Counted from the stretch's first letter, positions 38,431 through 64,000 are shown. The stretch: DNA of 64,000 nt from a virus (IMGVR_UViG_2799112248_000007:1-64000); one strand, 5' to 3'. The notes: a model not told the origin generated them from the sequence alone. Numbers and translations: made by a program.

Positions 38431-38470
38431 ATAAAATATGGAATTTACTAGAGCAAAGGAGAAATAAGAA

Positions 38471-38979: not shown

Positions 38980-38982
38980 TAG

Positions 38983-40167: not shown

Positions 40168-40172
40168 GGAGC

Positions 40173-40418
40173 ATGAGAACAATGGAAGAAACAAAATGTC
40201 AAGTATGTACAACATATGAGGCTTTCGAAAATTTAATTGAAATCGGCACTGAACCTAAGCAAGCCTTTCATATTGTCGTATCACAGCTAATTGCAAGCAC
40301 GTTAGAAACAGCTATTGAAGAAGCATATGACGAAGGTTATGAAGTAGGCTTCAAAGAAGCTTCTAATGATATAGCTGAAATCGTTGGTTCATATGCGAAA
40401 GCTGTAAAAGAAGCATAA
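40173..40418 (+). CDS. Hypothetical protein
   Basis: 81-aa ORF with an AAGGAG RBS. Confidence 0.7.
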   Translation: MRTMEETKCQVCTTYEAFENLIEIGTEPKQAFHIVVSQLIASTLETAIEEAYDEGYEVGFKEASNDIAEIVGSYAKAVKEA

Positions 40419-40678
40419 ATTACAAAAACTACTGTTAGATCTAAAAAACGACTAGAAATTAATCGTAATGATTTAATCGTTTTTCGATTAGCAACTACAA
40501 ATTTAGTTTTAATCTCCCAGTCGCACTAGCGAAAAGTTTGAATGGGCTAAATTTAGCGTTGTTCAATACATTACTTTAGCTGAGCTAATTTCAATGAAAT
40601 CAACTCACCCCGCTTCTTAAGGACTCATATAGCGTTGCTTATGTAATAGAATTATTTAATATCAAAGGATAACACACA

Positions 40679-40987
40679 ATGATTGCAAAATTAGATTATT
40701 TAAACTATATGCACTCATTAAAGGGCTCTATCTTTAAGATTTTGCCACTATATGAGGAAGGTGTTTCTACGCTACCTGACCACATAAATTCAGTTATTTT
40801 TGAGGTTCATAACGTAAAAGAAATCACATCTGAATATGATGGCGCATGGATTGTTCAAACTCATGCTATTCTTAATGGATTGCTTAAAGAGTGTATTAAA
40901 GCGGACAATAAACCATTCATTAAAAGCAAAGTGTTTGGAACTATTGACACGATTGAAAAACAAATTAAAAAACTAGAACAGGAATAA
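40679..40987 (+). CDS. YomY-like morphogenesis-region protein
   Basis: IFKILPLYEE motif; position before the neck/tail genes. Confidence 0.6.
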   Translation: MIAKLDYLNYMHSLKGSIFKILPLYEEGVSTLPDHINSVIFEVHNVKEITSEYDGAWIVQTHAILNGLLKECIKADNKPFIKSKVFGTIDTIEKQIKKLEQE

Positions 40988-40991
40988 TGTA

Positions 40992-41334
40992 ATGTTCAGC
41001 GCTTATAGAAAAAGGGTTCGAGCTAATGATAACACAATTTATGACTTATAAAATTCCACAAAAAGACAAATGGTGAACTATATCTTAGATTCTCCTTCCC
41101 TATCTTATGTTTTTATTGATATGCAGGAAACATTACCAATCCCTAGTATCGTAAATGACATTAGACCTTTTTATGGGCGTAGATTTTCCTAATGGTTCAG
41201 TTATTGTAAAACTACCTTAGAAAATCACATTCCTGAAATTAACTCAACTGTAACCATTTATGAGTATAAGTATCAAGTTGCTGTATTAACAGTATTGGTT
41301 ACATTGAAGTCCAGCTGCAAAGGATTCCAATAAC
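40992..41334 (+). pseudogene. Decayed putative head-closure/neck gene (YomX position)
   Basis: MFSAYRKRVRANDNTIYDL*NSTKRQMVNYILDSPSLSYV..GRRFS*, with in-frame stops and apparent internal deletions; function assigned by synteny. Confidence 0.6.
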
Positions 41335-41856
41335 ATGATTAAACAAAGTTCAACAGTAGAGTTCTTCTCAAACATATATCAAATTTTAATCACTGATGAA
41401 GAACTAATGAGATTATTAAAATATGAGCCTAAAGGATATGACACTCAAGAAAACTACCATCCCGACCCACTTGACCCTGAGTTACCAAACTTAGTTAACA
41501 TTGAAAGGGATGATTATTGGAAACTAGTTGATGAGAGAGTCGTTTTAGGCGAAAAAACCTCTGACCTAATAGAAAATAAACTATGCAAGATTTACATTTA
41601 CGAAGGTAGACGTAGACCTGTAATTGAAAGCTATCTAGTAGCACAACAAGAGGTTAACATTGACATTTTTATTCATGAATCATTTGACAGAGATTTAAGA
41701 ATATCTCGAATATCTGACAGGATTAATGAGCTGATAGCGCTAGAGCGCATTGCAGGCTTTGGTAAGCTCGAATACAAAGCAGGCAACCCTCGTGAAGCCC
41801 CAACACATTATAGACGCTTCTTACATCAATACACAATGAATGTGAGTAAGAAATAA
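41335..41856 (+). CDS. Putative tail terminator/completion protein (YomW-like)
   Basis: DEELMRLLKY..DPLDP, QEVNIDIFIH, RISRISDRINEL; synteny. Confidence 0.65.
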   Translation: MIKQSSTVEFFSNIYQILITDEELMRLLKYEPKGYDTQENYHPDPLDPELPNLVNIERDDYWKLVDERVVLGEKTSDLIENKLCKIYIYEGRRRPVIESYLVAQQEVNIDIFIHESFDRDLRISRISDRINELIALERIAGFGKLEYKAGNPREAPTHYRRFLHQYTMNVSKK

Positions 41857-42611
41857 TGCACCGCATTGAAAATTTAGACTACGATAAGAATTTATTTATT
41901 TTCGGTGAAACAGTAAATACAAAATTTGGTTCTATCAGATTTTTAACCTATCGAGAATATCTTAGTCATGCTGCTGAGATAAATCTTATCGCTCAAAACT
42001 CTCTACACATCTACTACAACTATAGGAATCAACTTAAAGAAGCTATGGCAGATGAATCAAGCTTAAAAGCCTTAATGGAAATCAAGGAAGCAGACCTATT
42101 AGAGATTGTTCTTAGTACACGACAGTTGTTAAATGCTTATTTGAAGATTTTTCAATTAGTGTTTGATGGAAATGAAGAAATACAATACGAAATAATCTTT
42201 GAATCTAGTGAGAGTTTTCACTTTGTCAGAAGATTGATTATGGATATGAATGTAATCACAGAAGACAAGGTTTCTCCTAACGAAGAAATTCAAAGAGCTA
42301 TTGAACGCTCTAGAAGATTTAAACAACAATCCTCACAGGAGCAGACATTTGTTGATATTGTTACTTCTATTGTCGCAAGTACAAGTAACAGTTTTGATGA
42401 TGTATGTAGAATGAACATTTTTCAAGTTTACGCTATTTATGCTCGTGTTGGAGCTATCTATAACTATCAGACATCTACCCTATTTGCCACCGTTGCAGAG
42501 AAGGTAAACATTGAATCTTGGAATAAGCATATTGACTTATTCAAATTAGAAGATGATGTAATATCTAAGAATGAATTTGACAAAAAATTTGGTGGGCTAC
42601 TTCAAATGTAG
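41856..42611 (+). CDS. YomV-like tail-region protein
   Basis: C-terminal YQTSTLFATV..IESWNKHIDLF; synteny. Confidence 0.65.
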   Translation: MHRIENLDYDKNLFIFGETVNTKFGSIRFLTYREYLSHAAEINLIAQNSLHIYYNYRNQLKEAMADESSLKALMEIKEADLLEIVLSTRQLLNAYLKIFQLVFDGNEEIQYEIIFESSESFHFVRRLIMDMNVITEDKVSPNEEIQRAIERSRRFKQQSSQEQTFVDIVTSIVASTSNSFDDVCRMNIFQVYAIYARVGAIYNYQTSTLFATVAEKVNIESWNKHIDLFKLEDDVISKNEFDKKFGGLLQM

Positions 42612-42648
42612 CTCATACACAATATAAATAAATGGAGGAATTTACTCA

Positions 42649-43416
42649 ATGGGTAAAATCGTAATTCAAGACACAGCAGATGTAACAATCACTGACCTAG
42701 AAACAGGTAAAGTGGTACTAAACGCGGAGGCGCAGTTAGCAGGTATCAAAGGCTCTATCTCAGAAGAAGACCTTAAAGGTGGTATCGGTAACAAAAAACT
42801 ATACAAAATTCGTACTGACAAAGCAATTGATTTAGCAATGCGTTCAGCAGTAGCAGATATTGAGTATTGGGCAATGACTCAAGGTGTAGCTGTAGAAGAA
42901 AACGGTAAAGGTCGATTCACAGCAAATACTAAAGGTATTGTTGTTGTAGACAGCGCCACTTCTGCAAACGAAATCGTATTACCTGATGGTGCTATCGTAG
43001 GAACTAAAGCACAAGTTGAACTACCTGATGGTACGCAAGAGACTTTAAATGTTGTTGTTTCTTTAACAGACAAAACTAAGAAAGCTGTTGATTTAGCAGG
43101 AGCTACAGGCACGTTCAAAGCAGGACAAGAGTTACATGTATTCTATCAAGAGGAAGTAGAAGGTCAAAGAATTTCTATTGATTCTACTAAGTTCGCAGGA
43201 AAATACAGAGTAGAAATGAAAACAATTGCTTATGACTTAGATACTGCAAAAGTAAAAGCAGATATTCTATTTGATTTCCCTGAAACAATCCCTAGTGGTG
43301 AGTTTGATATTTCATTAGAGAACGGTAATGTTTACACACCTGAAATCAATTTTGCAGTAATTAACCCTAAGGGTGCAGATGAAATGGGTTCAATCCTGCT
43401 TAAACCACGTAAATAA
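42649..43416 (+). CDS. Major tail tube protein (YomU-like)
   Basis: VIQDTADV, LKGGIGNK, PSGEFDISLENG; strong GGAGG RBS and a following terminator. Confidence 0.75.
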   Translation: MGKIVIQDTADVTITDLETGKVVLNAEAQLAGIKGSISEEDLKGGIGNKKLYKIRTDKAIDLAMRSAVADIEYWAMTQGVAVEENGKGRFTANTKGIVVVDSATSANEIVLPDGAIVGTKAQVELPDGTQETLNVVVSLTDKTKKAVDLAGATGTFKAGQELHVFYQEEVEGQRISIDSTKFAGKYRVEMKTIAYDLDTAKVKADILFDFPETIPSGEFDISLENGNVYTPEINFAVINPKGADEMGSILLKPRK

Positions 43417-43443
43417 GAAATATAATAATATGTCATAAAAACT

Positions 43444-43476
43444 AGGGTGAGAGGTCAACCTCTCCCCTTTTTATTT
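43444..43476 (+). terminator. Terminator after the tail tube gene
   Basis: AGGGTGAGAGG-TCAA-CCTCTCCCCT followed by T-run. Confidence 0.7.
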
Positions 43477-43510
43477 CTAAACTATTAACCGATAAAAAGG
43501 AGATTTTACC

Positions 43511-43993
43511 ATGACAGCAAAAAGACAGTCACCAATTAAATTAAAAGATATTCTAGCAGAATCTAAGAAAGTAGATGTAATGTCAACGTTCGTAGTTGAC
43601 CCTGAGACTAAAAAAACAGTTAAATATAACGAATACTTTGACCGCACTCAAGTTGAGAAGCTAACTCTTGAGCTATTCAACGATATGCAGTATGCAATCG
43701 AAAAAGAATACAGTTTCTTTGAAAGTGAAGAACAACTAATTAAATATGAGCTATTGCTTATTATTAAATACTTCTCTCACTTTAAAAATGAAATCGGTGA
43801 CACGTTCGAGGAAAAGATTATGGCAATGGAAGCATTAATGAAGATTGGTTTATTTGACCTATTCTTTGATGAAATTTTTGACCAAAATCAAGTTGGAGAA
43901 GTAATCGAACGTGTAAACAAGGTTGCTGAAAAAGCTGTATTGGCTCAAGAAGCAATTAATGAAGCATTGGAAACAAAAGGAGATTTTAAATAG
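43511..43993 (+). CDS. Putative tail assembly chaperone (YomO-like)
   Basis: Acidic helical 160 aa between the tube and tape measure genes. Confidence 0.55.
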   Translation: MTAKRQSPIKLKDILAESKKVDVMSTFVVDPETKKTVKYNEYFDRTQVEKLTLELFNDMQYAIEKEYSFFESEEQLIKYELLLIIKYFSHFKNEIGDTFEEKIMAMEALMKIGLFDLFFDEIFDQNQVGEVIERVNKVAEKAVLAQEAINEALETKGDFK

Positions 43994-44007
43994 TTAGGGT
44001 GATGTAA

Positions 44008-44466
44008 TTGCCTACATTCAGTAATATCAAGGATTTAGAAAAATATGTTCAAGGTAAAGTGAAGGACACCATTAAAAGCCCACAAGTTCTAAACGTGTTT
44101 AGACACGCAATGGTAGATTCTGTTTACACAGAAGTCTATGACTATTATGAGCCTAGATATGATGCTGGTGGTCTTTCAGACGCTAGAAATATGGTATTTA
44201 CAAAACATAAGCTTAATGGAAATACCTTCGCTTCTGACTTTGAAAACCTCACTAGTGATACAATGGATGGCTATTTTATTTCAGAGCTAATTGAAAATGG
44301 TAGTGATGTACAGCACACCTCTAGCAATTCTGAGAATGGTTGGTATAACCGTGATGAAAAATGGGCTGAACCTAGACCATTTGCAAAAGCAACAGCAGAA
44401 AAGCTAGATAAAACTACTTATAACAAACACCTTAAAAATGTTTTAGAGCAAGGTATCAACAATTGA
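44008..44466 (+). CDS. YomN/HK97 gp10-like tail protein
   Basis: EVYDYYEP, LIENG, EPRPFAKAT. Confidence 0.6.
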   Translation: MPTFSNIKDLEKYVQGKVKDTIKSPQVLNVFRHAMVDSVYTEVYDYYEPRYDAGGLSDARNMVFTKHKLNGNTFASDFENLTSDTMDGYFISELIENGSDVQHTSSNSENGWYNRDEKWAEPRPFAKATAEKLDKTTYNKHLKNVLEQGINN

Positions 44467-44479
44467 AGGAGGTGAGAAA

Positions 44480-45439
44480 ATGGCAATTAAAATACCTCCT
44501 GTAACTACTGAAGAATGGCTTAAATGTAATGAGTGGAATAAAAAGATTGTTGATAAGTTCTTGAAACAACAACATCTATCAGATAAAACACTTAAACAAT
44601 ATACAAGCGCATTAAAAATTTTTGTGAGATATGTTAAAGATGAATTTGACAACCGCCCTATCCACAAATTAAAAGCAAGACACGCTTTAGATTATCAGAA
44701 TCACTTGATGTCATTAGAGTTATCTTCAAATGCTGTTAAGTTCAAACGTTCAGCAGTAAGTTCACTTTGTAACTACATTGAACTTTACTATGGCGAAGAC
44801 TACCCCGAATTTAGAAATATCTTCAACAAGGCTATTCCCTCCCCTCCTAAACAACTTGTGAGAGAAAAGAAGATTGTAGCGAAAGAAGATATTGACAGGC
44901 TTATTGCAGAGCTTGAAAAAGAAGGTGAGTATCAAATGATTGCTTATTTCTTATTAAGCTACAGCACAGGCGCACGTAGAGCAGAAATAGCTCAGATGAA
45001 AAAAGAGTTCTTTTATATGCCTAAGGTAAAGAACAAAGACTTTTACGCAACACCTCAAGTTCGTGGTAAAGGTAAAGGTAAGGTTGGTAAACCGATCAAA
45101 CTGATGTATAGCGAAGAAGCTAGACAAGCTGTTTTAAAATGGCTTGAATTTCGTGGTGAAGATGATAACCCGTATGTTTTCGTTCGTAAGTTTAAGAATG
45201 GTGAAACAAAAGAACTTAGTCCCGACGCTTTCAATGCGTGGTTTACTAATAAGTTCAATAACATCTTAGGTTATAAACTTACACCTCACGCACTTAGACG
45301 CTCAAGAGCGACACACTTAGTAGTTGAAGAAGGAAAAGACATTAATAAAGCTAAGGTGCTTTTAAATCACATCTCTACTGAAACAACATCTATCTATGTT
45401 ATAAAAGATGTTTCAGATGAACTAGATGATATTTTCTAA
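44480..45439 (+). CDS. Tyrosine recombinase (YomM-like)
   Basis: STGARRAE, GKGK, HALRR, LLNH, TTSIY: full catalytic set. Confidence 0.9.
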   Translation: MAIKIPPVTTEEWLKCNEWNKKIVDKFLKQQHLSDKTLKQYTSALKIFVRYVKDEFDNRPIHKLKARHALDYQNHLMSLELSSNAVKFKRSAVSSLCNYIELYYGEDYPEFRNIFNKAIPSPPKQLVREKKIVAKEDIDRLIAELEKEGEYQMIAYFLLSYSTGARRAEIAQMKKEFFYMPKVKNKDFYATPQVRGKGKGKVGKPIKLMYSEEARQAVLKWLEFRGEDDNPYVFVRKFKNGETKELSPDAFNAWFTNKFNNILGYKLTPHALRRSRATHLVVEEGKDINKAKVLLNHISTETTSIYVIKDVSDELDDIF

Positions 45440-45545
45440 TACTTTGAATTACATCCCTACCCTATTTCGGTTAGGGGTTTACTTGAGGGTTTTAGACTGC
45501 AACAAAATAGTTGCACAACGACGAATAAAGAAGGAGCTAAACATT

Positions 45546-48500
45546 TTGAGTATTACAAATAACGAAGTAAAGTTTTTGGTTTCGTTAGATATTGATAAAG
45601 ATAAATCCAAAAAAAGGATTGATACATTCTTATCTAAAGAAATGAAAGATAAAAAACTAACTTTTGGTGTAAATGTTGGTGCATCTAATAAAAACATCAA
45701 AACATTTTTAGACAAGCATAAAAATAAAAACATTAACCTTAGTTTTGATGTTGCAGTTGGACAAAGTAAAGCAAACATTCAAACTTTCCTAAACAACCAA
45801 AAACAAGCTAAGAAATCTTTGATTTTCTATGTAAATGAACAAGCAACACAAACTACAGTCAAAAGTGCTTTAAAGAAAATTGAGGTGCAACCACTACGGA
45901 TTTCTTTTGGTGTGAATGATCAACAATCTAAAGCTAATATTAACAAATTTATAGAGACTGTTAAAGTAAACCAAAAACCAATTGAGCTTATTCTAGAAAA
46001 AAAGGCTAGTGTCCAAAACATTAATAAAAGCCTAGAACAAATTATTTTCGCTAAGGCAAAAGTAAAACTAGAACTTGCTAAAGGCGCATTTAATCATATT
46101 AAAGACACTGTTGAAACGAAAGAACTACAAGGTCTTAAAACTGTTATGGAGCTTGATATTGAAAAAACGAAGCTACGCATTTCAGAACAGATTAATAAAA
46201 TGTCTTTACCGAAGTTCAAAATTGATGTTGTCGCAAATGTTACACCTGTCGTTAGCTCAAAAGCAGTACAAGCTACTGTTAAAGAAGCCCCTTCTAATGT
46301 AAAAGAAATACCGTCACCTCCTACTGACTTTAATGGAACTATTGGAGCACTTAAAGAACTCCGCTCTATTCTTGTAGATATAAATACTAAAGTGACTGAC
46401 TTGAAAAAAAATATGTCTGAGGATACCAGTTTGGGAAAACAACTCTCAGACGACGGAGCTAAAATTTTAGAGATTCGCGAAGCAATTACTTCAACAAAAG
46501 AAGCATACGCAAATTTTAAAGGTGCAAACAACGAAGCAACAGAAGCATCGAACAAAGGATCTAAAGCTGCTAATTTATTATCTTTGGCTTTTGGTAGTCT
46601 TGGTGCTGCTGGTATGATAGCAGGCGCTGCTATTCAGTTTTTTACTGCTAGGTCTGAGGAAGCTAAAAAAGCTAAGGAAGAACTTATCGCTAAAAATGAG
46701 CAAGAGGTAAAGTCATTTGCAGACAATGAAAGAGCTATTGATAGCTTATTATCTAAATATAGTACACTTTCAGCAGAAAGCAAAGGACAACAACTAGATT
46801 CTCAAAAGTATAAAGAATTACTTGATACTCAAAATGAACTAGGTAAACTACTTCCTAACTTAGTTAAAGGCGAAGATGAATATGGTAATAAAATTCTAGT
46901 TTCTTCTATGCAAGCAGAAACTAAAGTTGACATTCTAAAACAAGAGCTTGAGGTTCAAAAACTACTTAATGCTGAAAAGGCAAAAGAAGAACAAGAAAAA
47001 TCAGAGGACACAGCTAGAGACACTATTAGTGACGCTGAAAAAGATAAGAAAGATAGTCTTAAAAGCGCTTATAATTTTGTTTACCAAATTGAGAGCGTAA
47101 GTAATAGATACGCAGAACTAAAAGGTAAGCTTACTAAAGGCATTAACATTGAGGGAGAAACACTCAGTTGGAGTGGAAAATCTCTTAAGAGTATCGAAGA
47201 TGTTTCTTTAGCACTTGAAAAAATAGATGAAACCTTAAGCAAGAAAAAGGAATACAACTTAACTGAGGGTTCTATTCGTGACTTAGAAAACTCTAAAGAA
47301 GGATTACAACAAATCTATCGTGAACTTCTACAAGCTCAAAAAGATGTTATGTCAGGTTTAAATGTATTAAAAACAGGATATACAAAAGACCTAGAAGATA
47401 CCGTTAAATTGACGGGTGACTTCTCTAAAGAAGGTCAAGAAGTATTTGAAGATGTTGCTAACAGTGTTATCAACTTAGCTGAAACTGAGTCTGATTTAGA
47501 TGATTTCAACGAAGCTATTACTATGGCGTTAGGTAAAAAAGACGCTGATATTGAGAAAAACTTTACTGAATTAGCAGATACTATTTCTGAAATGAGAAAA
47601 AGTGGTATTACTGATGCTGAAGAACTTGAGAAAAAGTATGGTGATTCATTTGCTAAAATCAAGAAAAGTATTCTAGATGCTCTTGTTAAATCAGGTATAA
47701 AAGAAGGTACTGCTCTTTATGAATCATATGAAAAAACTCTTGATACATTCATAGAATCTAAACTTAACGAAGAAAAAGCAATTAAAGAAATCATGGAAAC
47801 TCAAGGTAAAGGGCGCAAAGAAGCTGAGGAATATTTCAAAACTCATAACGAAGGCGCAGAAGGTCTTGCCGATGCTATAGACCCTATGGTGGCGTACGCA
47901 CAGAAAATCAAAAGTTTCAGCTCTCTAGGAGAGGAAATGCTTGGTGTCACTGATAAGCTTATAACAGAAACGAATGACCTTATTGATGTCTATGAGTATC
48001 TCTCAAGTATTACTAACAAAACAACAGAAGAAACTAGTAAACTAGAAGAAGTCAAGGGTAAGCTTAACGCTCTATACCCCCACCTAGTTAAAAATGGTGA
48101 GATTCGTATTGAGAATATCAAAAAAGAAAACGAAGCAAACAAAATACTTCGAAAATCATTTGAAAACATGGCTGATGAAAAATACAAATCAGAAAACTCA
48201 GCGACTTATAACTCTTCTCTCGGTACAAAAGCTCGTATTGAAAACCTACAAAAAGAATTACAAGCTTTAGATACTGTTATGGAAGAGTATAGAAAAGCAA
48301 ACCTTGATACTGTTGAAAAAGTCGTGGACAAAGTAAATAGTGGCGAATTGTCTCCACAATTTGGTTTGCCAATGATTAATGAAATAAATGAGTACAATAG
48401 TAAAGTGGGCAAACTTGATGAATTAATGGGCGAACTTAATGATAGTGTAAATACCCTAAGTTCTGCTAATGCTGATTATGAAAAATCTAATGAAAAAGCA

Positions 48501-53836: not shown

Positions 53837-53840
53837 TACT

Positions 53841-54482: not shown

Positions 54483-54498
54483 ACAGGAGGAATGACTA

Positions 54499-57400: not shown

Positions 57401-58506
57401 AATGGGAAAAAGGCAAATGGGTTAGTAAACTATTTGCAACCTTAGGCGACCCTATGTGGGAAGATGGTACATTATTCGCAGAAGGTCTTGTAACTCACAA
57501 TCTACGAATTGTTGATGGTCACATGAACAATAAAATTATTTTTGATTGGCTTGACGGTATCACAATTTTCGGTGACAACAACGGTGCTGTTATTTACCTT
57601 AGCGGTAATGATGGTATTAAAATCGAAGTCGATGGAGATAGAAAGTTTTGGGTTGGTTTGGATGGTAGGCTTTATGCGAAAGACATTACTACTCACAATC
57701 TTAAAATTGTTGACGGTAACTTAGGTGAGAAAATTGTATTTGATCATGAAGAAGGTATTACAATCTATGGCGATAACGCTGACATTTTCTTAAATGCTAA
57801 TGACGCTATTAGAATTAAAACCAAGAGTGGCGAAGATAGATTTTGGGTTGATACTGATGGTTCACTATTTGCTAAAAAGTTATACATCATGGGTGATGAC
57901 GATGAAATGATTGAAGATATTGATGGTTCATATATCTCTGATTTAACAGTAAATAGTTTAAAGACACTTGGCAAAGGAAGCACAAAACAAGACATTATCC
58001 ATATTGCTAAAAACTTTATGAGATTCAATACTTTCTTCTCAGATAGCGAAAAAACAAAACTAGAGTTTACCTTTGAAGGCACACGCGACACTTCATTCCC
58101 TGTTATGATTTTCGGTTCAGGAAATGGTAGAGGATACGGTAGTGGCTCTGAGCAAGCAAAAGTTTACAAAGATAACAAAAAGTTTGCTATTGAATATGAT
58201 GCACCAAATGGAGTTATGACAAAATTCTATTTCAATGAAACAGATACAGATGATGCAGGACAAGCAGTTTACTTTGAGTCTAAAGGTGGCGTTCGATTCC
58301 ACTCAGACAAAAAGTTCGTTGCAAAGACTGATTTGTATGAATTTTTCAGGGTTGTTAAAGGTGAAGACGCTAAAATGCAATTTGGTCAATACTCTTGGAT
58401 TACTATTGAAAAGGATAATCTAATGATTCGTTTTGATACTAATAACTACATCAAAATTTCTGCAAGTGGTGTGGAAATCAAAGGAACTAAGATTAGCTTA
58501 AACTAG
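54499..58506 (+). CDS. Tal/baseplate hub protein with a long central fibre and a C-terminal spike
   Basis: LFLCKPNK, ELSFKIP, VTRLRAFG, LGLGDSI hub motifs; beta repeats; ends VEIKGTKISLN. Confidence 0.8.
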   Translation: MKIGEIDYNLKLPKKSLFLCKPNKSTIAKINEAYDVQYYTKLSTVNELSFKIPTIIIKDEVPMDNPNIERIKHRYIFKYVVGNTTEYFLFNESNKTYGDEDYIEYRAYSLGVQLGDKNVREYEKIGNLKDVADGVLEDVYGSLGEVPIKRWTIGYVDSYFTTSETAERKYNVSSMSLLEVMYDIATKWNAVIKWNTEDLVIEFHKAENVGLNKGFYIRDGKYLESFDLSVDSSTTVTRLRAFGSEGLTFRKINPLGEDYIQDFSFYMYPFEYDKENNRVIKSSDYMSDNLCIALTKYEDLVKSLESDFETISKKIEALQAILTIESDRLSKITVERMLLEDERDVLLADFQTDKSLWGKDGYNDRGTKDGTERHAEVIELLRAKEIEESNQKAVVDNARFDVEDAEREKQVHLDKLKPSTNFTNDEYAELQNFIIVQEYTNDSITHPEDLMKEAKTIFKQSQEPKIQLTVSIIDFLSVIECQNDWDKLGLGDSIRIRYDRLKVNILAKIIEINYDFENFEISLTIANEKDLKDGSALLMDLLNKADLTSTIVSMDKDGWNLSKENNGKINEIINNKWDSLKNAVLAGYDQQITISERGIIVKSLDDPDSWLVIQNGFLAITNDRGNTWKHAISKDGIWGEYIFGKLISGVNLYIEDESGAWKTQGSRTTIYNADGKEVMWLGLVSENLRDQFDNIIRQETGECFGLKSWNTVNKVEITDCKGFAISRWKDNDWQKVMWANPDGTLYTKDMVAEGIKIVNNVGDLILDAENNFFDVSIFDKIVADGKLTTLEKLQITTELHRIHADYKALLKHADKYNKSERDNETDFDEAWNQDEGRFPTTISDIERYSTKDLIEKYTALVNYLSQFLPITKKGIIRDEFLEIDQKHPLMETTSEIANRGYFIQVFRDYHDASIKLKQAIEDSIFYSGINMGSYYNNLMMGKQGFVAVRNDGRYRAYLNATNGLALQKWEKGKWVSKLFATLGDPMWEDGTLFAEGLVTHNLRIVDGHMNNKIIFDWLDGITIFGDNNGAVIYLSGNDGIKIEVDGDRKFWVGLDGRLYAKDITTHNLKIVDGNLGEKIVFDHEEGITIYGDNADIFLNANDAIRIKTKSGEDRFWVDTDGSLFAKKLYIMGDDDEMIEDIDGSYISDLTVNSLKTLGKGSTKQDIIHIAKNFMRFNTFFSDSEKTKLEFTFEGTRDTSFPVMIFGSGNGRGYGSGSEQAKVYKDNKKFAIEYDAPNGVMTKFYFNETDTDDAGQAVYFESKGGVRFHSDKKFVAKTDLYEFFRVVKGEDAKMQFGQYSWITIEKDNLMIRFDTNNYIKISASGVEIKGTKISLN

Positions 58507-58517
58507 GAGGATTTTAT

Positions 58518-58982
58518 ATGGCAAACATAGCTCTAAAAGACGCTACAATATCTGATTCTACTGCCACTGACCACATCACCTATAAGGTTAATGAGCAAGT
58601 AGATACAGGTGGTGGGTACTATGGCCAATGGGGTAATTATGTACCAACCTACCCTATCTACGATTGGGTTCAACATCAAACTTCTGCAACAGTCAAAGGA
58701 GAAACAGTATCAACAGTAACAAACGTTACTATTCAAGGAAAAGCACCAATAGTTCAAGGTGACAAAACAAAAGAGAATGACTCATATAACATACCTAGTG
58801 GTGGCACATATGTTAGTGGTTCTCACACTAACGCTCAAGGCACAGTAACAGTTGGTAACAGTAGAAATGTTTTCATCAATGGTAAATCAGTTGCTATTGA
58901 TGGCTCTACCGTTACAACACATGCAGGAACTAGCTCTAAAATTAACGGTGGAACTAGTTCTACTGTAACAATAGGTTCATAA
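58518..58982 (+). CDS. PAAR-like spike-tip protein
   Basis: NVTIQGKAPIVQGD, NVFINGKSVAIDGS, GTSSTVTIGS; directly after the spike gene. Confidence 0.65.
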   Translation: MANIALKDATISDSTATDHITYKVNEQVDTGGGYYGQWGNYVPTYPIYDWVQHQTSATVKGETVSTVTNVTIQGKAPIVQGDKTKENDSYNIPSGGTYVSGSHTNAQGTVTVGNSRNVFINGKSVAIDGSTVTTHAGTSSKINGGTSSTVTIGS

Positions 58983-58995
58983 AGAAGGTGAGAAT

Positions 58996-60153
58996 TTGGC
59001 AGTAACAAAACAACCCATAAATTATTTAGAATTTAACAACCCTATTCATATTGTTTGGCGAAAAGGAACACCTAATGACCCTTTCATTGATAGACTAGAC
59101 ATTACTCGTATAGTAAATCAACGTGTTGCTCTCTTAGAAATTCCTGATGAACTATATCGAGTAAGGATTGCGAATATGTTTGAAGTAAACTACGAAAAGT
59201 TCATAAAAAGTAGTTTAGGTAAAAACGAGTTCTATTGTGACTATACAAATGGTTTCATCTACTTCAATGTTGACAGAGAAGCAGAAACAGTTTCTATTGT
59301 GTATAAAGGCAGAGGTGTCATTCTATACCCTTCTAATCGAATTATTCACTATGATGGCACTAATAGCACAGAAACACTATACAAAATCATTGAAGAAGCA
59401 AAATCTCAGATTCAAGAATTAATCGGTCAAACAGCAAACTTTGAAGAAGTTTTAGAGAATATGATTATCGCTACGAATTTAACAAAAGAAGCTACAGACA
59501 TTGTTCTTGAAACAAATGATAAAGCACAGCAATATATTGATCTTGTCAAAGATGCTTACGAAACCACTGTATTAATCTATCAACCATATGTACAAACACA
59601 GAATGAAATAGCGCAAAAGTACCCTAACCCACACGTTGGTTGGACTGTGCAAGTATATGACACAGGTATTCGTTACCGTTGGAATGGCAAAGAGTGGATT
59701 CCAATAGATAATTTAGGTGGGAATATCCCTAAGGCATCTGATAAATATGATGGTCTTATGTCTAAAGAACATTACATTAAAGTGGAAGACATTAGTAATG
59801 AAACAGACTATAGAACTATCGTTTTTATTTGCCCTCAAGAAATTTTACAAGGTGTCCAAGACCCTCATGTAGTCTTCCCTCATAATGGAGAAATTTTAGA
59901 CATTAAAGCATTTGTCTCAAAAAAAGGTACTGTCGATACTTTAATAGATATTGAATTATCAAAAGATTTCAATAATTGGTATTCTATTATTGATAAACCT
60001 GTTTCAATTAATGCAGGTAATCACAAAGATAGCAGACTACACAAATTAAAAACAACAAAAATTAAAGAAAATGATGTTTTCAGGTTGAATGTATCTAATT
60101 TTAATACAGACGCATATAACCTGACAGTAAATATTAAAATAAAAATTGATTAG
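58996..60153 (+). CDS. Baseplate/fibre attachment protein
   Basis: Coiled coil plus YPNPHVGWTVQV..YRWNG, ASDKYDGLMSKE tail-fibre-type motifs. Confidence 0.65.
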   Translation: MAVTKQPINYLEFNNPIHIVWRKGTPNDPFIDRLDITRIVNQRVALLEIPDELYRVRIANMFEVNYEKFIKSSLGKNEFYCDYTNGFIYFNVDREAETVSIVYKGRGVILYPSNRIIHYDGTNSTETLYKIIEEAKSQIQELIGQTANFEEVLENMIIATNLTKEATDIVLETNDKAQQYIDLVKDAYETTVLIYQPYVQTQNEIAQKYPNPHVGWTVQVYDTGIRYRWNGKEWIPIDNLGGNIPKASDKYDGLMSKEHYIKVEDISNETDYRTIVFICPQEILQGVQDPHVVFPHNGEILDIKAFVSKKGTVDTLIDIELSKDFNNWYSIIDKPVSINAGNHKDSRLHKLKTTKIKENDVFRLNVSNFNTDAYNLTVNIKIKID

Positions 60154-60170
60154 AGAGTAGGAATTTAATT

Positions 60171-60929
60171 ATGGCAACAAAAGCGCCTGAGGTTTCATGG
60201 TATGAAGGTACAAATGAATTTTCTAAACAAGTAAACTATACAGTAAACTACGGTACTGTAGATGCTGACTCACCGTCACAAACTAAAGTATTCTATATTT
60301 GGAATAACCGTGGAGGTAAAGAAGATTGCTCTAAAATGGAGGAAGTAACATTCACAACTCGTGACCGTAAGGGTGGTGATGGAAGTCAAGATGGAAACAT
60401 TGTTCAGGCAGTTAAAGATTGTTGGTTCAATGTTCGTGTAGATAGCTTAGGTGAAGAAGATAAATTTTTACCTGTTGGTAAAAGTGGTGTTAAAGATACA
60501 AATAGGTCAGGTGTTAAAGACTTAGGTACAACAGGAACTACAACAAATGTAAATGCATCTACTGCCCAAGTTTGGTCTGCTAAAAAAGATTTAGCATTAA
60601 ACACTTATGTCCAACCAACAAATCCAAATGGTTTCATTTATAAGGTTACTAAAGCAGGTACAACAGATGTTAACGAGCCACAATGGGCAGATAAGGAAGG
60701 AAACCCTACATTTGATGGTTTAGATATTGAATACCAAGCTATCAAAATTGAAAAAACACCTGCAACAAAAGAAATTTTAGGCTTTGCAAATAATACGAAG
60801 GAAGATGGCTCTGACGCTCACTTAGCAGGCGGTAACTTCGTTAAGATTTCTGTATATGCAGATGTACCAGTTGATGCATTAGCAGGTAAAAACCTATTAA
60901 TGCAACGTGTTTCATACCGTTACGTTTAA
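60171..60929 (+). CDS. Tail-associated structural protein
   Basis: Beta-rich, with a WSAKK..YKVTKAGTT..EPQW module like that of 53177-53836. Confidence 0.6.
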   Translation: MATKAPEVSWYEGTNEFSKQVNYTVNYGTVDADSPSQTKVFYIWNNRGGKEDCSKMEEVTFTTRDRKGGDGSQDGNIVQAVKDCWFNVRVDSLGEEDKFLPVGKSGVKDTNRSGVKDLGTTGTTTNVNASTAQVWSAKKDLALNTYVQPTNPNGFIYKVTKAGTTDVNEPQWADKEGNPTFDGLDIEYQAIKIEKTPATKEILGFANNTKEDGSDAHLAGGNFVKISVYADVPVDALAGKNLLMQRVSYRYV

Positions 60930-60946
60930 AAGTAACATAATAATAT
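60928..60946 (+). promoter_or_regulatory. 19-bp motif variant
   Basis: AAAAGTAACATAATAATAT overlapping a stop codon. Confidence 0.7.
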
Positions 60947-60970
60947 AATTAGGTAAAAGAGTGATTTTAC

Positions 60971-61004
60971 AGGGTAAGGGGATTTCTCCCCTACCCTATT
61001 TTTT
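60971..61004 (+). terminator. Rho-independent terminator
   Basis: AGGGTAAGGGGA-TTTC-TCCCCTACCCT followed by T-run. Confidence 0.75.
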
Positions 61005-61052
61005 ATGAATTTTTTAATAAAAAACTTCAATGCAATGAAGGAGATTGATAAT

Positions 61053-61652
61053 ATGTTATTCACAAATGGACAAAATTTACAGGCGATCGGTATCCCCTTT
61101 AATTGGAACGCTGATTATGTAAATGGTAAAAACTATGCTGAGTATGACCTACTTACGCATGAGAAAAATGATTTTTATTTAATTCAGAGAAATCAGGTTA
61201 TTCGTTTTGGTTTGTTTGGTCAAGGAATGAAATTTTTCTTCGAAATGTCAGATGGTTCATTCAACCTAATGAAGAGAAGAATTGAAGTTGAGTACATTGA
61301 CGAAAATGGAGAAACTTATCATTTAACAACAAATTTCGAAAACAAAGACCTTATCACATATAAAGAAGCTTACACTGACTACAGCAATGTACAAGGTGTT
61401 CAACGCTCAAATATCAAGTCCATTAATTTTGGCTACAAAACAATTTACAAGAAAGATGATGTTCAACTATTTTTCCAACCTGTTGTATCCCTACCCTTTA
61501 ATGAGAGCGCCTTTATTGAGGTCAAATTAACATCGAATAAGGACATGAACGGCTACTTGGTGTTCAAATCAAGTGGGATTGAAATAGAACGCTTCTACGC
61601 CCCTTTAGAAGCCAATAGAGCAGGTCAAATTAATTGGACTATCAAAAACTAA
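61053..61652 (+). CDS. Hypothetical tail-region protein
   Basis: ORF; start moved to ATG 61053 behind AAGGAG. Confidence 0.7.
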   Translation: MLFTNGQNLQAIGIPFNWNADYVNGKNYAEYDLLTHEKNDFYLIQRNQVIRFGLFGQGMKFFFEMSDGSFNLMKRRIEVEYIDENGETYHLTTNFENKDLITYKEAYTDYSNVQGVQRSNIKSINFGYKTIYKKDDVQLFFQPVVSLPFNESAFIEVKLTSNKDMNGYLVFKSSGIEIERFYAPLEANRAGQINWTIKN

Positions 61653-61673
61653 CACAAAGAGAGGAAATGCACT

Positions 61674-62006
61674 ATGAAGAGATTTTGGCTACGTCTTCCT
61701 GAAAAAAATGACTACTTAGAAATAACAGCTACGAACAATAAGTTATCATTATTTGAGTCTTCAACTGAAAAAGCTTACACAGTAGACATAGGTAATTATT
61801 CACTTGAGAAACTACGAGATAATCTAGTTAGTAAAGGCTTAGATGCTCGGATTGGAGAAATTAAAGCACCTAAAAACTCTAAATTCATTGTATTGTTCTT
61901 AGACAGCTCATTCACAAATGTAAATGGTAGCTTTGTTACTTTTGTAGGCGGTATAGAGTCTATTGACACAGGAGATAGACAAGAAGAAAACATAATTCAC
62001 ATTTAA
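61674..62006 (+). CDS. Hypothetical protein
   Basis: 110-aa ORF with a GAGG RBS. Confidence 0.7.
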   Translation: MKRFWLRLPEKNDYLEITATNNKLSLFESSTEKAYTVDIGNYSLEKLRDNLVSKGLDARIGEIKAPKNSKFIVLFLDSSFTNVNGSFVTFVGGIESIDTGDRQEENIIHI

Positions 62007-62022
62007 GAAAGGAAGATGCTCT

Positions 62023-63096
62023 ATGACAGTAGTAGGCGGTAATTTAGAGCGCAAAGAGGTAGGATTACCTATTGGTGTTTCAGGAACTCACGATAATACT
62101 GAAATTAATAGGACAACAGGTTTTCTACAATTGATGCAAGTTGATGTTGATGGTCAAGGAAGACCTATTTATACAGAAAAAGGCTCTTGGACTTCCGATG
62201 TGATTGATTTAGGCGATAAGTTTAAGGATTTTGAAAAAGTATTTACAACCAATACAAAGAATGAAAGAAGCTCTTTCGCAGTATTAACAAGAGTATCAGA
62301 CAATGGTATAGATTGGTCTGATTGGACTGCTATTGCAATGGATGGAACTATTCAATCTGATATAAAACAATATATTCAAGTTAGAATAAATTTGTTTGCA
62401 GGTTTTGTTACAGATTTATTCATTATTTCAAATTCAGATTTCGAAAAAAATGAATTTGTTTTAGAAAAGAAATTAACTGATAGTGGTTATGCAGTTCCAA
62501 CTTTAACATCAAATACATCTTCTTCACTTGGTTTTGCTTTTGCTTCTAGTGAATATAACTATAGCTACGCTCCGTGGAAAGCATTCGATAAAACTGATTC
62601 AGGATACTATAATACAAAGAATGGTGAAGCGACTGGATTCTTAGGATTTTATTTCAAAGAAAAAAAAGTAATCACTAGGTATAAGGTAAGGAGTGCGAAT
62701 AGTAATCAAACATTGTTTTTTCAATGTTTACCTAAAAATTGGGTTTTACAAGGCAGCAATGACACTACAAATGGTACTGATGGCACTTGGGATGACTTGG
62801 ATGTTCAAAACAATCAATCATGGACTACAATAAACACAGATAAGGTATTTGAAGTAAAAAGAGTAAATAAATATCATGCTTATAGACTAAATTGGTCTGC
62901 AAACAATGGTTATGCGGGTTATTCAATTATTGGAGAACTAGATTTTTATGAAGAAGGAACAACGTCACTAAGTCTTAAACGAGATTATAAATTTGATATG
63001 AAACTTGACACTAAATGGTCAGATACAGGAAGCTTACACAGACAAAAAATTACTCGTGCTGATTGGTTAAAGATTGATAGACTTGAGGTGTTATAA
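62023..63096 (+). CDS. Discoidin/F5-8 type C-like domain protein (putative receptor-binding)
   Basis: PTLTSNT..ASSEY..PWKAFD, PKNWVLQGSND, YRLN..NNG..IGELDF. Confidence 0.7.
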   Translation: MTVVGGNLERKEVGLPIGVSGTHDNTEINRTTGFLQLMQVDVDGQGRPIYTEKGSWTSDVIDLGDKFKDFEKVFTTNTKNERSSFAVLTRVSDNGIDWSDWTAIAMDGTIQSDIKQYIQVRINLFAGFVTDLFIISNSDFEKNEFVLEKKLTDSGYAVPTLTSNTSSSLGFAFASSEYNYSYAPWKAFDKTDSGYYNTKNGEATGFLGFYFKEKKVITRYKVRSANSNQTLFFQCLPKNWVLQGSNDTTNGTDGTWDDLDVQNNQSWTTINTDKVFEVKRVNKYHAYRLNWSANNGYAGYSIIGELDFYEEGTTSLSLKRDYKFDMKLDTKWSDTGSLHRQKITRADWLKIDRLEVL

Positions 63097-64000
63097 ATGG
63101 ACATTGTAACAAGCTATGATAATTGGGGTGGAAAAGGAAACCGAACAACTATACTCAGTGGCAACTCAGAAGTGTTTGATGGAACTGAAACTACCTATAT
63201 GTATTATGGTAATGGTGGGCAAATCAATATTAATATTATTTTCAGTGGGCTAGAAGGAAGATTATATATTGATGGCATTAAAGTAATTAGAACAAACTAT
63301 GGATTTAGTGATAAGCAAATATTATTAAATGATGTAGTAATAGGAACTTTTAACGATAATACAGACTCTCCACTACCTATGTTAAAACTCAAGAGAAATG
63401 ACAAATTAACTATCAAAGGAAAGAACAAAGAAACAGGTGGCGGTACATACCCTACCTATATCAGAGAAATTGAGTTTAAAACATATTATGTTCCTGATAA
63501 GTCTTTTATCTATCATGATGGTGAATATAAAAAAATTGAGCAGAAAAAAACTAGTTCAGCGTTTTATAATGGTACAAATTCCTATATGAGAACAACGAAA
63601 GTCCACAAATATAACTTAGTGACATTAGAAACTTGGGTCAGACCCCATGCAATAACTAGTACACATCAAGATATTATGTCAAACGTTGAAAATGGAGGAC
63701 ACTCTATAGGTCTTCTAAACGGAAAACCTTATTCAAGATTTTATTTAAATGGTGCATATAGATATTGTTATGGAAACGAGCTTCCATTAAACCAATGGTC
63801 GCATATAGCAACAACATTTGATGGCAAAAATATTATATTTTATGTAAATGGCGTTAAGGTGAGTGAGCTTGCCTATAGTGGAACGGTTGGAAAGACATCT
63901 GCTATATTTTCATTAGGAGCTAACCCTGCTGTTACCTCTGGATATATAGAGTATTTTCAAGGAGAATTAAAAGATTCAAGAATTTGGACTGTCGCTAGAA
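63097..64000 (+). CDS. LamG/concanavalin-like domain protein, truncated by the window end (not in the ORF track)
   Basis: Hand translation from ATG 63097: TLETWVRP..NQWSHIATTFDG..FYVNG..FQGELKDSRIWTVAR. Confidence 0.8.
   Translation, partial: MDIVTSYDNWGGKGNRTTILSGNSEVFDGTETTYMYYGNGGQININIIFSGLEGRLYIDGIKVIRTNYGFSDKQILLNDVVIGTFNDNTDSPLPMLKLKRNDKLTIKGKNKETGGGTYPTYIREIEFKTYYVPDKSFIYHDGEYKKIEQKKTSSAFYNGTNSYMRTTKVHKYNLVTLETWVRPHAITSTHQDIMSNVENGGHSIGLLNGKPYSRFYLNGAYRYCYGNELPLNQWSHIATTFDGKNIIFYVNGVKVSELAYSGTVGKTSAIFSLGANPAVTSGYIEYFQGELKDSRIWTVAR

Follow-up and report, generated by a model that had tools for sequence, protein, structure and literature searches.

PBSX of Bacillus subtilis is a defective prophage that is kept by its host lineage and forms phage-like particles without viral propagation. 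Its tail is contractile, and its heads package host DNA. In phage SPbeta (NC_001884), the genes yonI, yonH, yonG, yonF (terminase), yonE (portal), yonD, yonC, yonB, yonA, yomZ, yomY and yomX are located between yonJ and yomW. This order agrees with an earlier note on this DNA, which placed the packaging and head genes of SPbeta between yonJ and the yom tail genes. The published SPbeta description (PMC8270828) gives the tail as flexible, non-contractile and 320 nm long.

The window analyzed here, the whole stretch of 64,000 nucleotides, is the first 64 kb of a 96-kb (96,204-base) SPbeta-like provirus of Lysinibacillus. Its features are the following; the last one lies further along the same record.

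1-35262, minus strand: early/replication arm, recognized by tblastn synteny with SPbeta
7948-8124, early arm: truncated gene remnant
32818-35262, minus strand: RecD2-like helicase, 814 aa (Pfam)
38725-38979, plus strand: YonK-like protein (PF09642, E 1e-14; phrog_8651)
38983-40167, plus strand: YonJ-like metallophosphoesterase/exonuclease (phrog_284, E 4e-64; Pfam Metallophos), the last conserved gene before the lost head module
40173-40418, plus strand: 81-aa ORF at the left deletion border, 39% identical to the 94-aa ORF after YonJ in the head-bearing relative L098 (dN/dS 0.15-0.26)
40419-40678, plus strand: deletion scar, holding a frameshifted fragment of a post-capsid gene at 40434-40611
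40679-40987, plus strand: 102-aa four-helix-bundle protein (phrog_5523, E 2e-14), the first retained gene past the deletion, 64% identical to the L098 homologue
40992-41334, plus strand: pseudogene of a YomX-like neck stopper (head-closure) protein, with broken matches to the intact L098 gene
41335-41856, plus strand: YomW-like neck/tail protein, 173 aa (29% identity to SPbeta YomW; phrog_9587; dN/dS 0.11-0.13)
41856-42611, plus strand: YomV-like protein, 251 aa (31% identity to SPbeta YomV; phrog_4051), 99% identical in the siblings (dN/dS 0.08)
42649-43416, plus strand: YomU-like tail tube protein, 255 aa (phrog_2729, E 2e-40; PDB 8k98_A, "tail tube protein", E 3e-43)
43511-44466, plus strand: two genes (160 and 152 aa) in the position of tail chaperones, conserved in L098 and G002, the second with a weak YomN-like match (E 0.003)
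44480-45439, plus strand: YomM-like tyrosine recombinase within the tail module (Pfam Phage_integrase, E 2e-18; 32% identity to SPbeta YomM)
45426-52577, plus strand: tape measure protein, 2383 aa, with M23 peptidase (PF01551) and tail lysozyme (PF18013) domains, similar to YomI and full length in the siblings
52578-54482, plus strand: Dit (distal tail protein) split into two ORFs (199 and 220 aa) that enclose a third of 225 aa (phrog_33); the N- and C-terminal halves of YomH match the two
54499-58506, plus strand: Tal/YomG-like baseplate hub protein, 1335 aa (Pfam YOMG_N, Prophage_tail; phrog_6211, E 3e-208; dN/dS 0.08-0.11)
58518-60153, plus strand: PAAR-like protein (154 aa; phrog_281) and YomF-like protein (385 aa; phrog_11315; 32% identity to YomF)
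60171-64000, plus strand: start of the receptor-binding cassette, with proteins of 252, 215, 110 and 357 aa, then a LamG protein running past the window end (phrog_17517, phrog_21223, Laminin_G_3)
75595-76353 of the record: amidase endolysin, retained (dN/dS 0.07-0.15)

Between YonJ and the neck genes, the terminase-portal-capsid module, which is required for a viable virion, is missing. ORFs stop at 40418 and restart at 40679, and the gap of about 260 bp described in the earlier note is thus real. The YonJ and YomW homologues are only 1.17 kb apart and are followed by homologues of YomV and YomU (tblastn synteny); head-bearing relatives have ~9.4 kb here, coding for terminase, portal, scaffold and capsid. 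Genes for a terminase, portal or capsid were not found in the window, as had been noted before, or in the 96,204-base record, where the right end of the element is unassembled. These searches used tblastn with the head proteins of SPbeta, L008 and L098 and four families (phrog_2739, phrog_4088, PF03237 and PF03354). As positive controls, all four families matched in G002, G004 and G005, and phrog_2739 and PF03237 matched in B. subtilis. A head module elsewhere in the host was also sought: the whole draft genome of G003, one of two other Lysinibacillus genomes with a copy of the element, has no terminase, portal or capsid gene of the SPbeta type. It has six other terminases, and the two inspected in context both belong to ordinary small prophages.

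In the relatives L008/G002, L015 and L098, the head module occupies precisely the interval from the YonJ-side genes to the 102-aa gene. Among the 23 IMG/VR loci that include 10 kb of upstream sequence, 21 have a portal gene there, the exceptions being the sibling copy and L076. The YonJ of the window is 33% identical to that of SPbeta-group phages and 60% identical to that of L008; over the last 62 residues, its identity to L098 is 92%. The fragment at 40434-40611 corresponds to aa 46-104 of 198, an internal part of the L098 gene that comes after the capsid gene (8943-9539; tblastx E 2e-18, tblastn E 5e-15). The scar is conserved at 96-97% across three copies, and contigs of runs X5, X6 and X9 and the metagenome contig L097 bridge it. 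Besides G003 and the second genome, G004, the same junction is carried by one further isolate run and three metagenome samples, with near-identical sequence in rhizosphere and sediment metagenomes. Gene order and the remnant in the gap together indicate that the head module is truly gone, deleted from a head-bearing ancestor.

On the other side of the scar, the 102-aa protein is predicted with good confidence (AlphaFold2 pLDDT 90), and fold searches returned generic helical bundles only. The next gene, 40992-41334, is broken, as the earlier note had recognized. In comparison with the intact 218-aa YomX-like gene of L098, only aa 1-66, 171-197 and 202-218 are left, in several frames and with stops. 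One stop is common to all three copies, and the deletions differ by lineage. The predicted fold of the intact homologue is similar to the neck proteins of Pam3, lambda, T1 and R4C, to XkdH of PBSX and to gp16 of SPP1 (Z 9.9-7.1), which suggests a phage stopper protein. The remnant differs by 4.6-7.1% between copies, in addition to its lineage-specific deletions, and the adjacent 102-aa gene by 0.65-2.3%; the pseudogene thus evolves ~3-10 times faster. These copy-to-copy differences show that the stopper, the sole head-side neck gene left, decays neutrally.

The gene set of a non-contractile tail is complete (tube, tape measure, Dit, Tal/baseplate and receptor-binding proteins), and no tail sheath was named by any match in the family profile searches. 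The three-ORF layout of Dit is also present in the head-bearing G002. The downstream tail genes had been described as open, and this is the case: 16 of 16 genes between 40679 and 61652 are open, and their counterparts in both sibling copies are full length. In the three copies, these neck and tail genes are intact at 2-25% protein divergence, with a dN/dS of 0.08-0.33 for the tail genes. The tail genes are thus neither neutral nor often broken in the relatives. From ~61.7 kb onward, the gene content of the copies diverges. All three assemblies end inside repeated LamG arrays, and none of them reaches the right end of the element.

For 34 element genes pooled, G003 and G004 differ with a dS of 0.087 and a dN of 0.013 (dN/dS ~0.15), and dN/dS is ~0.1-0.25 in the 6.5 kb that surround the deletion. 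The dS is mosaic (0.016-0.23 in the proximal part and 0.4-0.9 in the distal tail), a pattern that shows that recombination occurs. Its median is 0.072 in the element vs. 0.165 in the adjacent host genes (Mann-Whitney p 0.001; 12 host genes, one flank), a difference that agrees more with recent horizontal spread than with a long vertical history. On the left, the element borders on the same chromosomal site in G003 and G004. Of 49 species genomes in the genus, only two carry the element, which is therefore not a domesticated locus genus-wide. One of the carriers, L. zambalensis M3 (G004), has a second SPbeta-like prophage, which is head-bearing (contig C107). The divergence between the copies shows a post-loss lineage kept by purifying selection in several strains of at least two species.

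In the 35-kb early arm, the genes for DNA polymerase, helicase, a RecJ-like nuclease, a Sak4-like protein and ribonucleotide reductase are all intact and under purifying selection; the arm comprises nrdF/E/I and the genes of the YorM-, YorL- (DNA polymerase, 1353 aa), YorK-, YorJ-, YorI- (helicase), YorH-, YorG-, YorF- and YopR/Q-like proteins. The major genes have equal length in the G003 and G004 copies and a dN/dS of ~0.05-0.35. The coding density is 0.78 in this arm vs. 0.92-0.95 in the late arm. Because the replication arm is conserved as strongly as the tail genes and is absent from known tailocin loci, the selection is not specific for tail production. To our knowledge, no characterized tailocin locus needs replication and nucleotide-metabolism genes. 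The earlier proposal that selection keeps tail production therefore stands only in part: the tail genes are under purifying selection while the stopper decays, but the replication and nucleotide-metabolism genes are equally conserved.

No holin and no small membrane-spanning ORF were found in the 96 kb; a holin may lie in the unassembled part of the element. A holin-like gene (phrog_36029), adjacent to that of the endolysin, is intact in G002, has only 72 residues in G004 and 68 in G003, both without the membrane segment, and is absent from G000. A homologue of the YonO RNA polymerase was found neither in the element nor in G002.

The reading that we prefer, with an even chance of being correct, is that of a head-less SPbeta-like prophage lineage, maintained as a tail producer at a stage intermediate between temperate phages and compact tailocin loci. 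At least two deletions took out ~9.4 kb of packaging and head genes: large terminase, portal, scaffold and capsid, together with a YonG-like gene and two genes located after the capsid gene. On induction, the late program would still be run and produce long, non-contractile tails of the SPbeta type. These tails would bear the tape measure with its cell wall hydrolase domains, a Dit/Tal baseplate and fast-diverging receptor-binding proteins of the lectin type, and may act like an F-type tailocin, while the replisome, which is still encoded, would serve for amplification of the locus in situ. The element would thus represent a stage on the way from a temperate phage towards a compact tailocin locus of ~22 kb. 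It is probably a tail producer at an intermediate stage; such a form, no longer quite a virus and not yet a tail-shaped weapon of the bacterium, seems to be rare. The tailocin reading had been put forward in the earlier note; the lack of a head and the full tail set speak for it, but the element keeps its replication arm. The truncated holin-like gene, the lack of a holin in the 96 kb, the presence in 2/49 genomes, the dS below that of the host flank and the missing right end also count against the preferred explanation.

Loss of the head module and of the holin-like gene is also expected when a prophage is disarmed. The element could be a defective prophage without tail function that persists by genes helping the host (immunity, nucleotide metabolism and lysin), its low dN/dS being the result of recombination with functional relatives or of short time. 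The low coding density of the early arm, the gene remnant at 7948-8124, the mosaic dS, in which recombination is visible, and the narrow phylogenetic spread are in line with this. However, all the neck and tail genes are intact in three diverged copies, and both flanks of the deletion are constrained, while the pseudogene embedded in them evolves much faster, with a new deletion per lineage. Patches of recombination would have to halt at the deletion borders each time, and this explanation is unlikely. A complete phage with its head and packaging genes past the receptor-binding arrays, perhaps as a non-homologous module, is very improbable. The right end is unseen, since the three assemblies break in the LamG arrays, and the context of only two of the six other terminase genes of G003 was inspected. 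Nevertheless, these two contigs are self-contained small prophages, and array genes and a terminase never occur on the same G003 contig. G002, a complete head-bearing relative (166 kb, with terminal repeats), has a single head module in the canonical place, with only lysis genes and a serine recombinase between its tail genes and early arm. Furthermore, the head-gene remnant and the decayed stopper of the element are found at precisely this place.

A full replisome and regulatory arm under purifying selection would also suit a helper-dependent mobile element, i.e., a giant capsid-borrowing satellite with its own replication, tail and lysin genes, whose packaging and transfer would depend on the terminase and capsids of an SPbeta-like phage that shares the host and has a genome of similar size. 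The lower dS than in the host flank points to movement of the element since the head genes were lost, and the near-identical junction recurs in a further isolate run as well as in metagenomes from rhizosphere and sediment. In G004, the element resides together with the head-bearing prophage of C107, and the part that has decayed, the stopper, belongs to the head side and would come from a helper. On the contrary, the G003 assembly, without SPbeta-type terminase, portal and capsid genes, offers no such helper, and the shared left-flank site fits vertical descent or homologous replacement as well. No pac or cos site was identified. Such an element seems quite unlikely, and we know of no described tail-carrying satellite of ~100 kb. 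The more specific proposal of a "capsid-less satellite" of ~100 kb, a mobile SPbeta-like genome minus nothing but its head and packaging genes, which would replicate itself, make its own tails with a large, exchangeable repertoire of receptor-binding cassettes and ride in the capsids of co-resident SPbeta-like phages, is decidedly unlikely. If true, it would mirror the capsid-forming islands, which borrow the tails of helper phages.

With SPbeta (SPBc2, Spbetavirus), phi3T and Goe11-14, the element shares the order of the early arm (nrdI/E/F, YorL polymerase, YorK, YorJ, YorI, YorG, YorF and YopQ/R). YonK, YonJ, YomW, YomV, the YomU tail tube, the YomM recombinase, the YomI tape measure with its lytic domains, YomH, YomG and YomF are common to SPbeta and the element, with an identity of only 24-54% between the proteins. 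Unlike in SPbeta, yonI-yonA and yomZ-yomX have no intact counterpart, yomX being present only as a pseudogene, and the receptor-binding region is expanded, with arrays of LamG and discoidin genes. More distant kin listed with SPbeta are phiCD211 and the staphylococcal SPbeta-like phages.

Like F-type tailocins, the element combines the absence of head genes with a full set of non-contractile tail genes and a lysin gene; in both, the tail genes are under purifying selection and the receptor-binding genes diversify. Compared to F-type tailocin loci (roughly 10-25 kb), it is much larger (~100 kb) and keeps replisome and nucleotide-metabolism genes. Its holin-like gene is truncated, its tail ancestry is of the SPbeta type and its distribution is patchy (2/49). 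Efagins, in contrast, are reported from all E. faecalis genomes.

In 15 related genomes, a tail tube gene of the SPbeta type is present without a portal gene. The two inspected, G025 (C1:1727.4-1749.8 kb) and G050, contain a compact, head-less tail-plus-lysis locus of ~22 kb. This locus resembles the element in its YomW-, YomV- and YomU-type genes, tape measure, Dit, Tal, a homologue of the 155-aa pre-lysin protein and the absence of head genes. In contrast to the element, it lacks replication genes; its lysin is of the M23 type, and a membrane protein is encoded in the place of a holin. Host genes surround it, and its chromosomal site is syntenic in the two species (G025 and G050). Its proteins are distant from those of the window, being found via a family profile, and are ~42% identical to the phage type of G004 contig C107.

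PBSX and the element are both prophage-derived and kept by the host; unlike PBSX, the element has no head genes left, and its tail genes are of the non-contractile type. Among these systems, it is best placed as a maintained head-less element, probably a tail producer and less likely a mobile element that borrows capsids.

The window, positions 1-64000 of a provirus record of 96,204 bases, was compared with SPbeta (NC_001884) at the protein level, as a megablast search of the phage collection with 36000-46000 returned no match. At this level, the gene order clearly matches that of SPbeta:

1-31 kb, minus strand: early arm, with nrdF/E/I and homologues of YorM, YorL, YorK, YorJ, YorI, YorH, YorG, YorF and YopR/Q
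32818-35262, minus strand: RecD2-like helicase, at the position of the SPbeta YonO RNA polymerase
From 35.5 kb, plus strand: HU-like gene, YonK (PF09642), YonJ (phrog_284)
Between YonJ and YomW: 81-aa ORF, 260-bp gap (40419-40678, the scar), 102-aa ORF, 343-bp stretch that is not open (40992-41334)
After YonJ, plus strand: homologues of YomW, YomV, YomU, YomN, YomM, YomI, YomH, YomG and YomF
52578-54482: Dit, as two ORFs of 199 and 220 aa
Record 75595-76353, beyond the window: amidase endolysin

The DNA polymerase homologue YorL is 53% identical to that of SPbeta. No YonO homologue was found in the 96-kb provirus record (G000), in the head-bearing virus G002 or in the fetched parts of two Lysinibacillus genomes that carry sibling copies of the element, Lysinibacillus sp. 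KCTC 33748 (G003) and L. zambalensis M3 (G004). The two Dit ORFs correspond to the N- and C-terminal halves of SPbeta YomH and enclose a 225-aa ORF (phrog_20658, labelled head decoration); this split is not damage, since G002 has the identical layout. The early arm is less densely coding (0.78) than the late arm (0.92-0.95), and 7948-8124 is a truncated remnant, as its match to a G002 protein of 292 aa is limited to the final 60 residues. Both features fit an erosion of accessory genes. A 12-base motif occurs eight times, at 8771, 9218, 17369, 24488, 26487, 28851 and 35329 (plus strand as written) and at 37029 (minus strand), with most copies in the intervals separating minus-strand early genes. 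Since the motif, read as the reverse complement, has a TATAAT-like box at its end, it may mark the sites of early promoters. In the 12-mer count, this motif is confined to the early arm and 37029 and does not occur in the scar. Promoter and terminator scans of 35200-45500 gave no excess over the shuffled expectation and have no bearing on a late promoter in the scar.

In SPbeta, thirteen genes lie between yonJ and yomW, including yonF (terminase), yonE (portal) and yonB, which agrees with the earlier note's placement of the head and packaging genes between yonJ and the yom tail genes. In the window, YonJ and YomW are 1.17 kb apart, and the short gap between the YonJ block and the neck and tail block is indeed 260 bp long. 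The claim that terminase, portal and capsid are absent also holds. The SPbeta yonH-yomX proteins gave a best E of 0.25 against the 96-kb record in tblastn, and the profiles phrog_2739 (SPbeta-type portal), phrog_4088 (capsid-position), PF03237 and PF03354 (terminase) have no match there; all four matched in G002, G004 and genome G005, used as positive controls. With the head proteins of three closer relatives as queries, the sole match in the record is a remnant. These relatives share a common gene order:

G002 (locus L008): 166-kb metagenomic virus with terminal repeats, YonJ 60% identical
L015: Bacillus sp. prophage
L098: 28-kb metagenome contig, the closest relative, with the YonJ end 92%, YomW 78% and the YomM-like protein 86% identical

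The order is YonJ, a small ORF, a YonG-like gene, terminase, portal, a gene of ~420-455 aa, a scaffold-sized gene, a capsid-position gene, a ~198-aa gene, a ~147-aa gene, the 102-aa homologue, an intact YomX-like gene (~220 aa) and YomW. No Pfam family was found for the L008 head and neck proteins. In L098, the block absent from the window covers 547-9993 (~9.4 kb, ten ORFs). Within the scar, 40434-40611 corresponds, in two frames, to residues 46-104 of the product of the 198-aa gene; the block was thus lost by at least two deletions, of ~8.6 kb and ~0.74 kb. The element descended from a head-bearing SPbeta-like phage and lost its head module through deletion.

Relatives of the 102-aa protein are encoded at 36 IMG/VR loci, 23 of them with 10 kb of upstream DNA. 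A portal gene lies upstream at the usual spacing in 21 of these 23, the two exceptions being a sibling of the element and an odd record, L076. This 133-kb SPbeta-like record (L076, L081) has two genes of the 102-aa type ~23 kb apart, one with head genes before it and no tube gene after it, the other with no head genes upstream and a tube gene downstream; an insertion or duplication inside the neck region may account for this. The relatives P0001-P0024, one of them from Lysinibacillus xylanilyticus, are 63-92% identical, and the L098 homologue 64%. The completeness estimates shown for G000 (29%) and G002 (50%) were kept out of the evidence. Their low values probably come from a 332-kb reference contig (protein P0025) of a G002-type genome, which, at about twice 166 kb, looks like a double-length assembly.

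The same junction is present in other genomes. G003 and G004 have YonJ, the 81-aa ORF, the scar, the 102-aa gene, the remnant and YomW in the same arrangement, at 93-97% nucleotide identity, and the IMG/VR record G001 matches G003 at nearly the same coordinates. The junction is also spanned in two metagenomes, from rhizosphere (X5; a contig of 1191 nt with 3 differences) and from sediment (X6), in a further isolate (X9; on a single contig of 8.6 kb) and by the 1.3-kb metagenome contig L097 (99.7-100% identical). This recurrence excludes an assembly artefact. The junction is common to these copies through descent or spread, and the loss of the head predates the divergence of the known copies. 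To the left of the element lies host DNA with a HAD hydrolase, genes for opine-metallophore synthesis, a LysR regulator and MFS transporters; this flank is syntenic between G003 and G004.

The whole 5.2-Mb G003 assembly has no match to the terminase and capsid-position proteins of the closest relative, nor to the portal and capsid-position profiles. Six other terminase genes are present on other contigs, none of which carries array genes, the repeated LamG/discoidin receptor-binding genes; the two examined, on C20 and C30, lie in small prophages that are self-contained and have no relation to the element. The absence of a cognate head module therefore extends to the entire G003 assembly, the right end of the element itself lying beyond assembled sequence, since G000, G003 and G004 all break within the repeated arrays. 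The right end was not found among the small G003 contigs C36-C39, which carry array genes only. Contig C27 of G003 begins with a holin and an amidase, which were considered and rejected as this end; they are probably part of another prophage, as the G004 counterpart lies on C39 of that genome, ~17 kb from a terminase. In the complete G002, just lysis genes and a serine recombinase separate the tail genes from the early arm, hence no second head module is expected at the right end. L. zambalensis M3 contains a second, distantly related SPbeta-like prophage that bears a head (C107:91000-116000; L020, L021), with YonN, YonJ, YonG, terminase and portal, followed in this list by YomW, a tape measure and a YomX-like gene that is intact. 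This prophage could serve the head-less element as a helper.

Past the window, G000 carries about a dozen LamG/discoidin 'tail protein' genes, the amidase endolysin, and then second and third runs of LamG/discoidin-like genes, which reach the end of the contig. After the endolysin, the receptor-binding cassette that begins at 60171 appears again (record 60171-96204, of which 60171-64000 falls in the window; L002, L003), and its 252-, 215- and 110-aa genes have truncated copies at 76387-77740. In total, G000 has ~15 LamG/discoidin genes, and G003 has 35 phrog_17517 matches over C53 and C36-C39.

The stretch 40992-41334 is matched piecewise by an intact YomX-like gene. One stop is common to all three copies; the other lesions differ per lineage: G000 lacks 245 nt, X9 has a different deletion of 225 nt, and those in G003 and G004 are smaller than that of G000. 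Copies differ by 4.6-7.1% in this stretch and by 0.65-2.3% in the adjoining 102-aa gene. In the predicted model of the intact homologue (pLDDT 81), the N-terminal domain (~residues 20-114) matches stopper and head-closure proteins: the Pam3 (cyanophage) neck (Z 9.9), lambda neck chain M (9.7), the T1 stopper (9.6), the R4C stopper (9.4), PBSX XkdH (8.4) and SPP1 gp16 (7.1). Phage neck proteins account for 17 of the 18 top fold-match rows. On these fold matches, the decaying gene is the head-side plug on which the tail docks, which confirms the earlier guess of a head-closure gene. The 102-aa protein is confidently predicted as a four-helix bundle. Its top fold match, a flagellar chaperone (Z 13.7), is within the tool's warning range for helical bundles, and as the fold matches are generic, no role is assigned to the protein. 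The 173-aa, 102-aa and YomX-like proteins had no useful match in PDB sequence searches.

Ahead of the lysin, G002 encodes two membrane proteins, one of which (phrog_36029) weakly matches a holin family. This gene is reduced to a 72-residue piece in G004 and a 68-residue piece in G003, both without the membrane segment, and nothing of it is recognisable in G000, whose 96 kb hold no other small membrane ORF.

The tail module is intact, as the earlier note had described: all 16 genes of 40679-61652 are full length in both G003 and G004, and their dN/dS is low, so that the tail genes are neither neutral nor often broken in relatives.

dN/dS of the window's tail genes against the sibling copies
YomW: 0.11 vs G003, 0.13 vs G004
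YomV: 0.08 vs G003, 0.08 vs G004
Tube protein: 0.10 vs G003, 0.22 vs G004
Tape measure: 0.33 vs G003, 0.31 vs G004
Tal: 0.08 vs G003, 0.11 vs G004

Constraint on the replication genes equals that on the tail genes. Between G003 and G004, the 34 pooled element genes (up to YomM) have a dS of 0.087 and a dN of 0.013, against 0.161 and 0.026 for 12 adjacent host genes. The per-gene dS median is also lower in the element (0.072) than in the left host flank (0.165; p 0.001, the flank being 12 genes on one side). Between 45.4 and 61 kb, dS climbs to 0.4-0.9 and dN/dS stays within 0.08-0.33, and past ~61.7 kb gene content varies among copies, which indicates recombination and turnover of receptor-binding genes. 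After the head was lost, the tail, lysin and replication genes were under purifying selection and the stopper was neutral.

Of 49 species genomes in the genus, only two, G003 and G004, have the YomV-like protein of the element. Among 370 genomes of the family, the SPbeta-type tube profile occurs in 22 and the portal profile in 6, all within these 22. The tube gene is thus found without a portal gene in 16 genomes, G003 and 15 others. In two of the 15, the Lysinibacillus genomes G025 (C1:1727400-1749800) and G050 (matching site; L053-L060), this corresponds to a compact head-less cluster of ~22 kb. It consists of small regulators, YomW-, YomV- and YomU-like genes, a chaperone-position gene, a 2137-aa tape measure, Dit, Tal, receptor-binding genes, a membrane protein and an M23 lysin. 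The cluster is flanked by host genes (RecQ, FabI, flotillin and others), at a site syntenic in two Lysinibacillus species. Judged from its genes, it is laid out like a classic F-type tailocin locus and looks like the end state of a path from phage to tailocin; in these sister species, this type of tail would have gone the tailocin road.

For the element itself, there is about an even chance that it is a maintained, head-less, tail-producing intermediate. Its tails would still be made and be of consequence, their likeliest use being that of a non-contractile killing particle. The tailocin interpretation proposed earlier stands as far as purifying selection on the tail genes and the lack of a head are concerned; the retained replisome, the truncated holin-like gene and the patchy distribution speak against it. 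Together with the lower dS of the element, these three features misfit a finished tailocin and leave room for two other explanations. A defective prophage kept for other reasons is rather unlikely, and a helper-dependent mobile element that borrows capsids is improbable. That head genes are hidden is very doubtful indeed, in view of what G002 carries between its tail genes and early arm.

Prophage descent is assumed for tailocins. Intermediates between tailocin and prophage are scarce, according to a passage of the efagin preprint (bioRxiv 10.64898/2025.12.13.693970). The Lysinibacillus lineage may be such an intermediate, with the head module just excised, a remnant left and the stopper decaying strain by strain; the tail, the lysin and the whole replisome are still under selection, and the holin-like gene is truncated. 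The literature searched (supplementary files were outside its scope) contained no report of a tailocin or a head-less SPbeta-like element in Lysinibacillus, nor of an SPbeta-derived tailocin. The new aspect is the large, replisome-bearing intermediate. The culturable strains KCTC 33748 and L. zambalensis M3 offer a testable system, in which one can ask in which order genes are lost from phage to tail weapon, whether replication in place boosts the particle yield and whether a head-less giant prophage still moves between hosts.

Compared with the SPbeta-like phages, the element has lost viable membership. Its genes suggest that it works like the F-type tailocins without being a member: the tail set is present and the head absent, but the locus is not compact and retains replication genes. 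Of a lysis cassette, it has the amidase endolysin and, in G003 and G004, a truncated holin-like gene, the right end lying outside the assembled contigs. It would extend the few Gram-positive F-type particles by a tail of the SPbeta type whose receptor-binding repertoire is very large.
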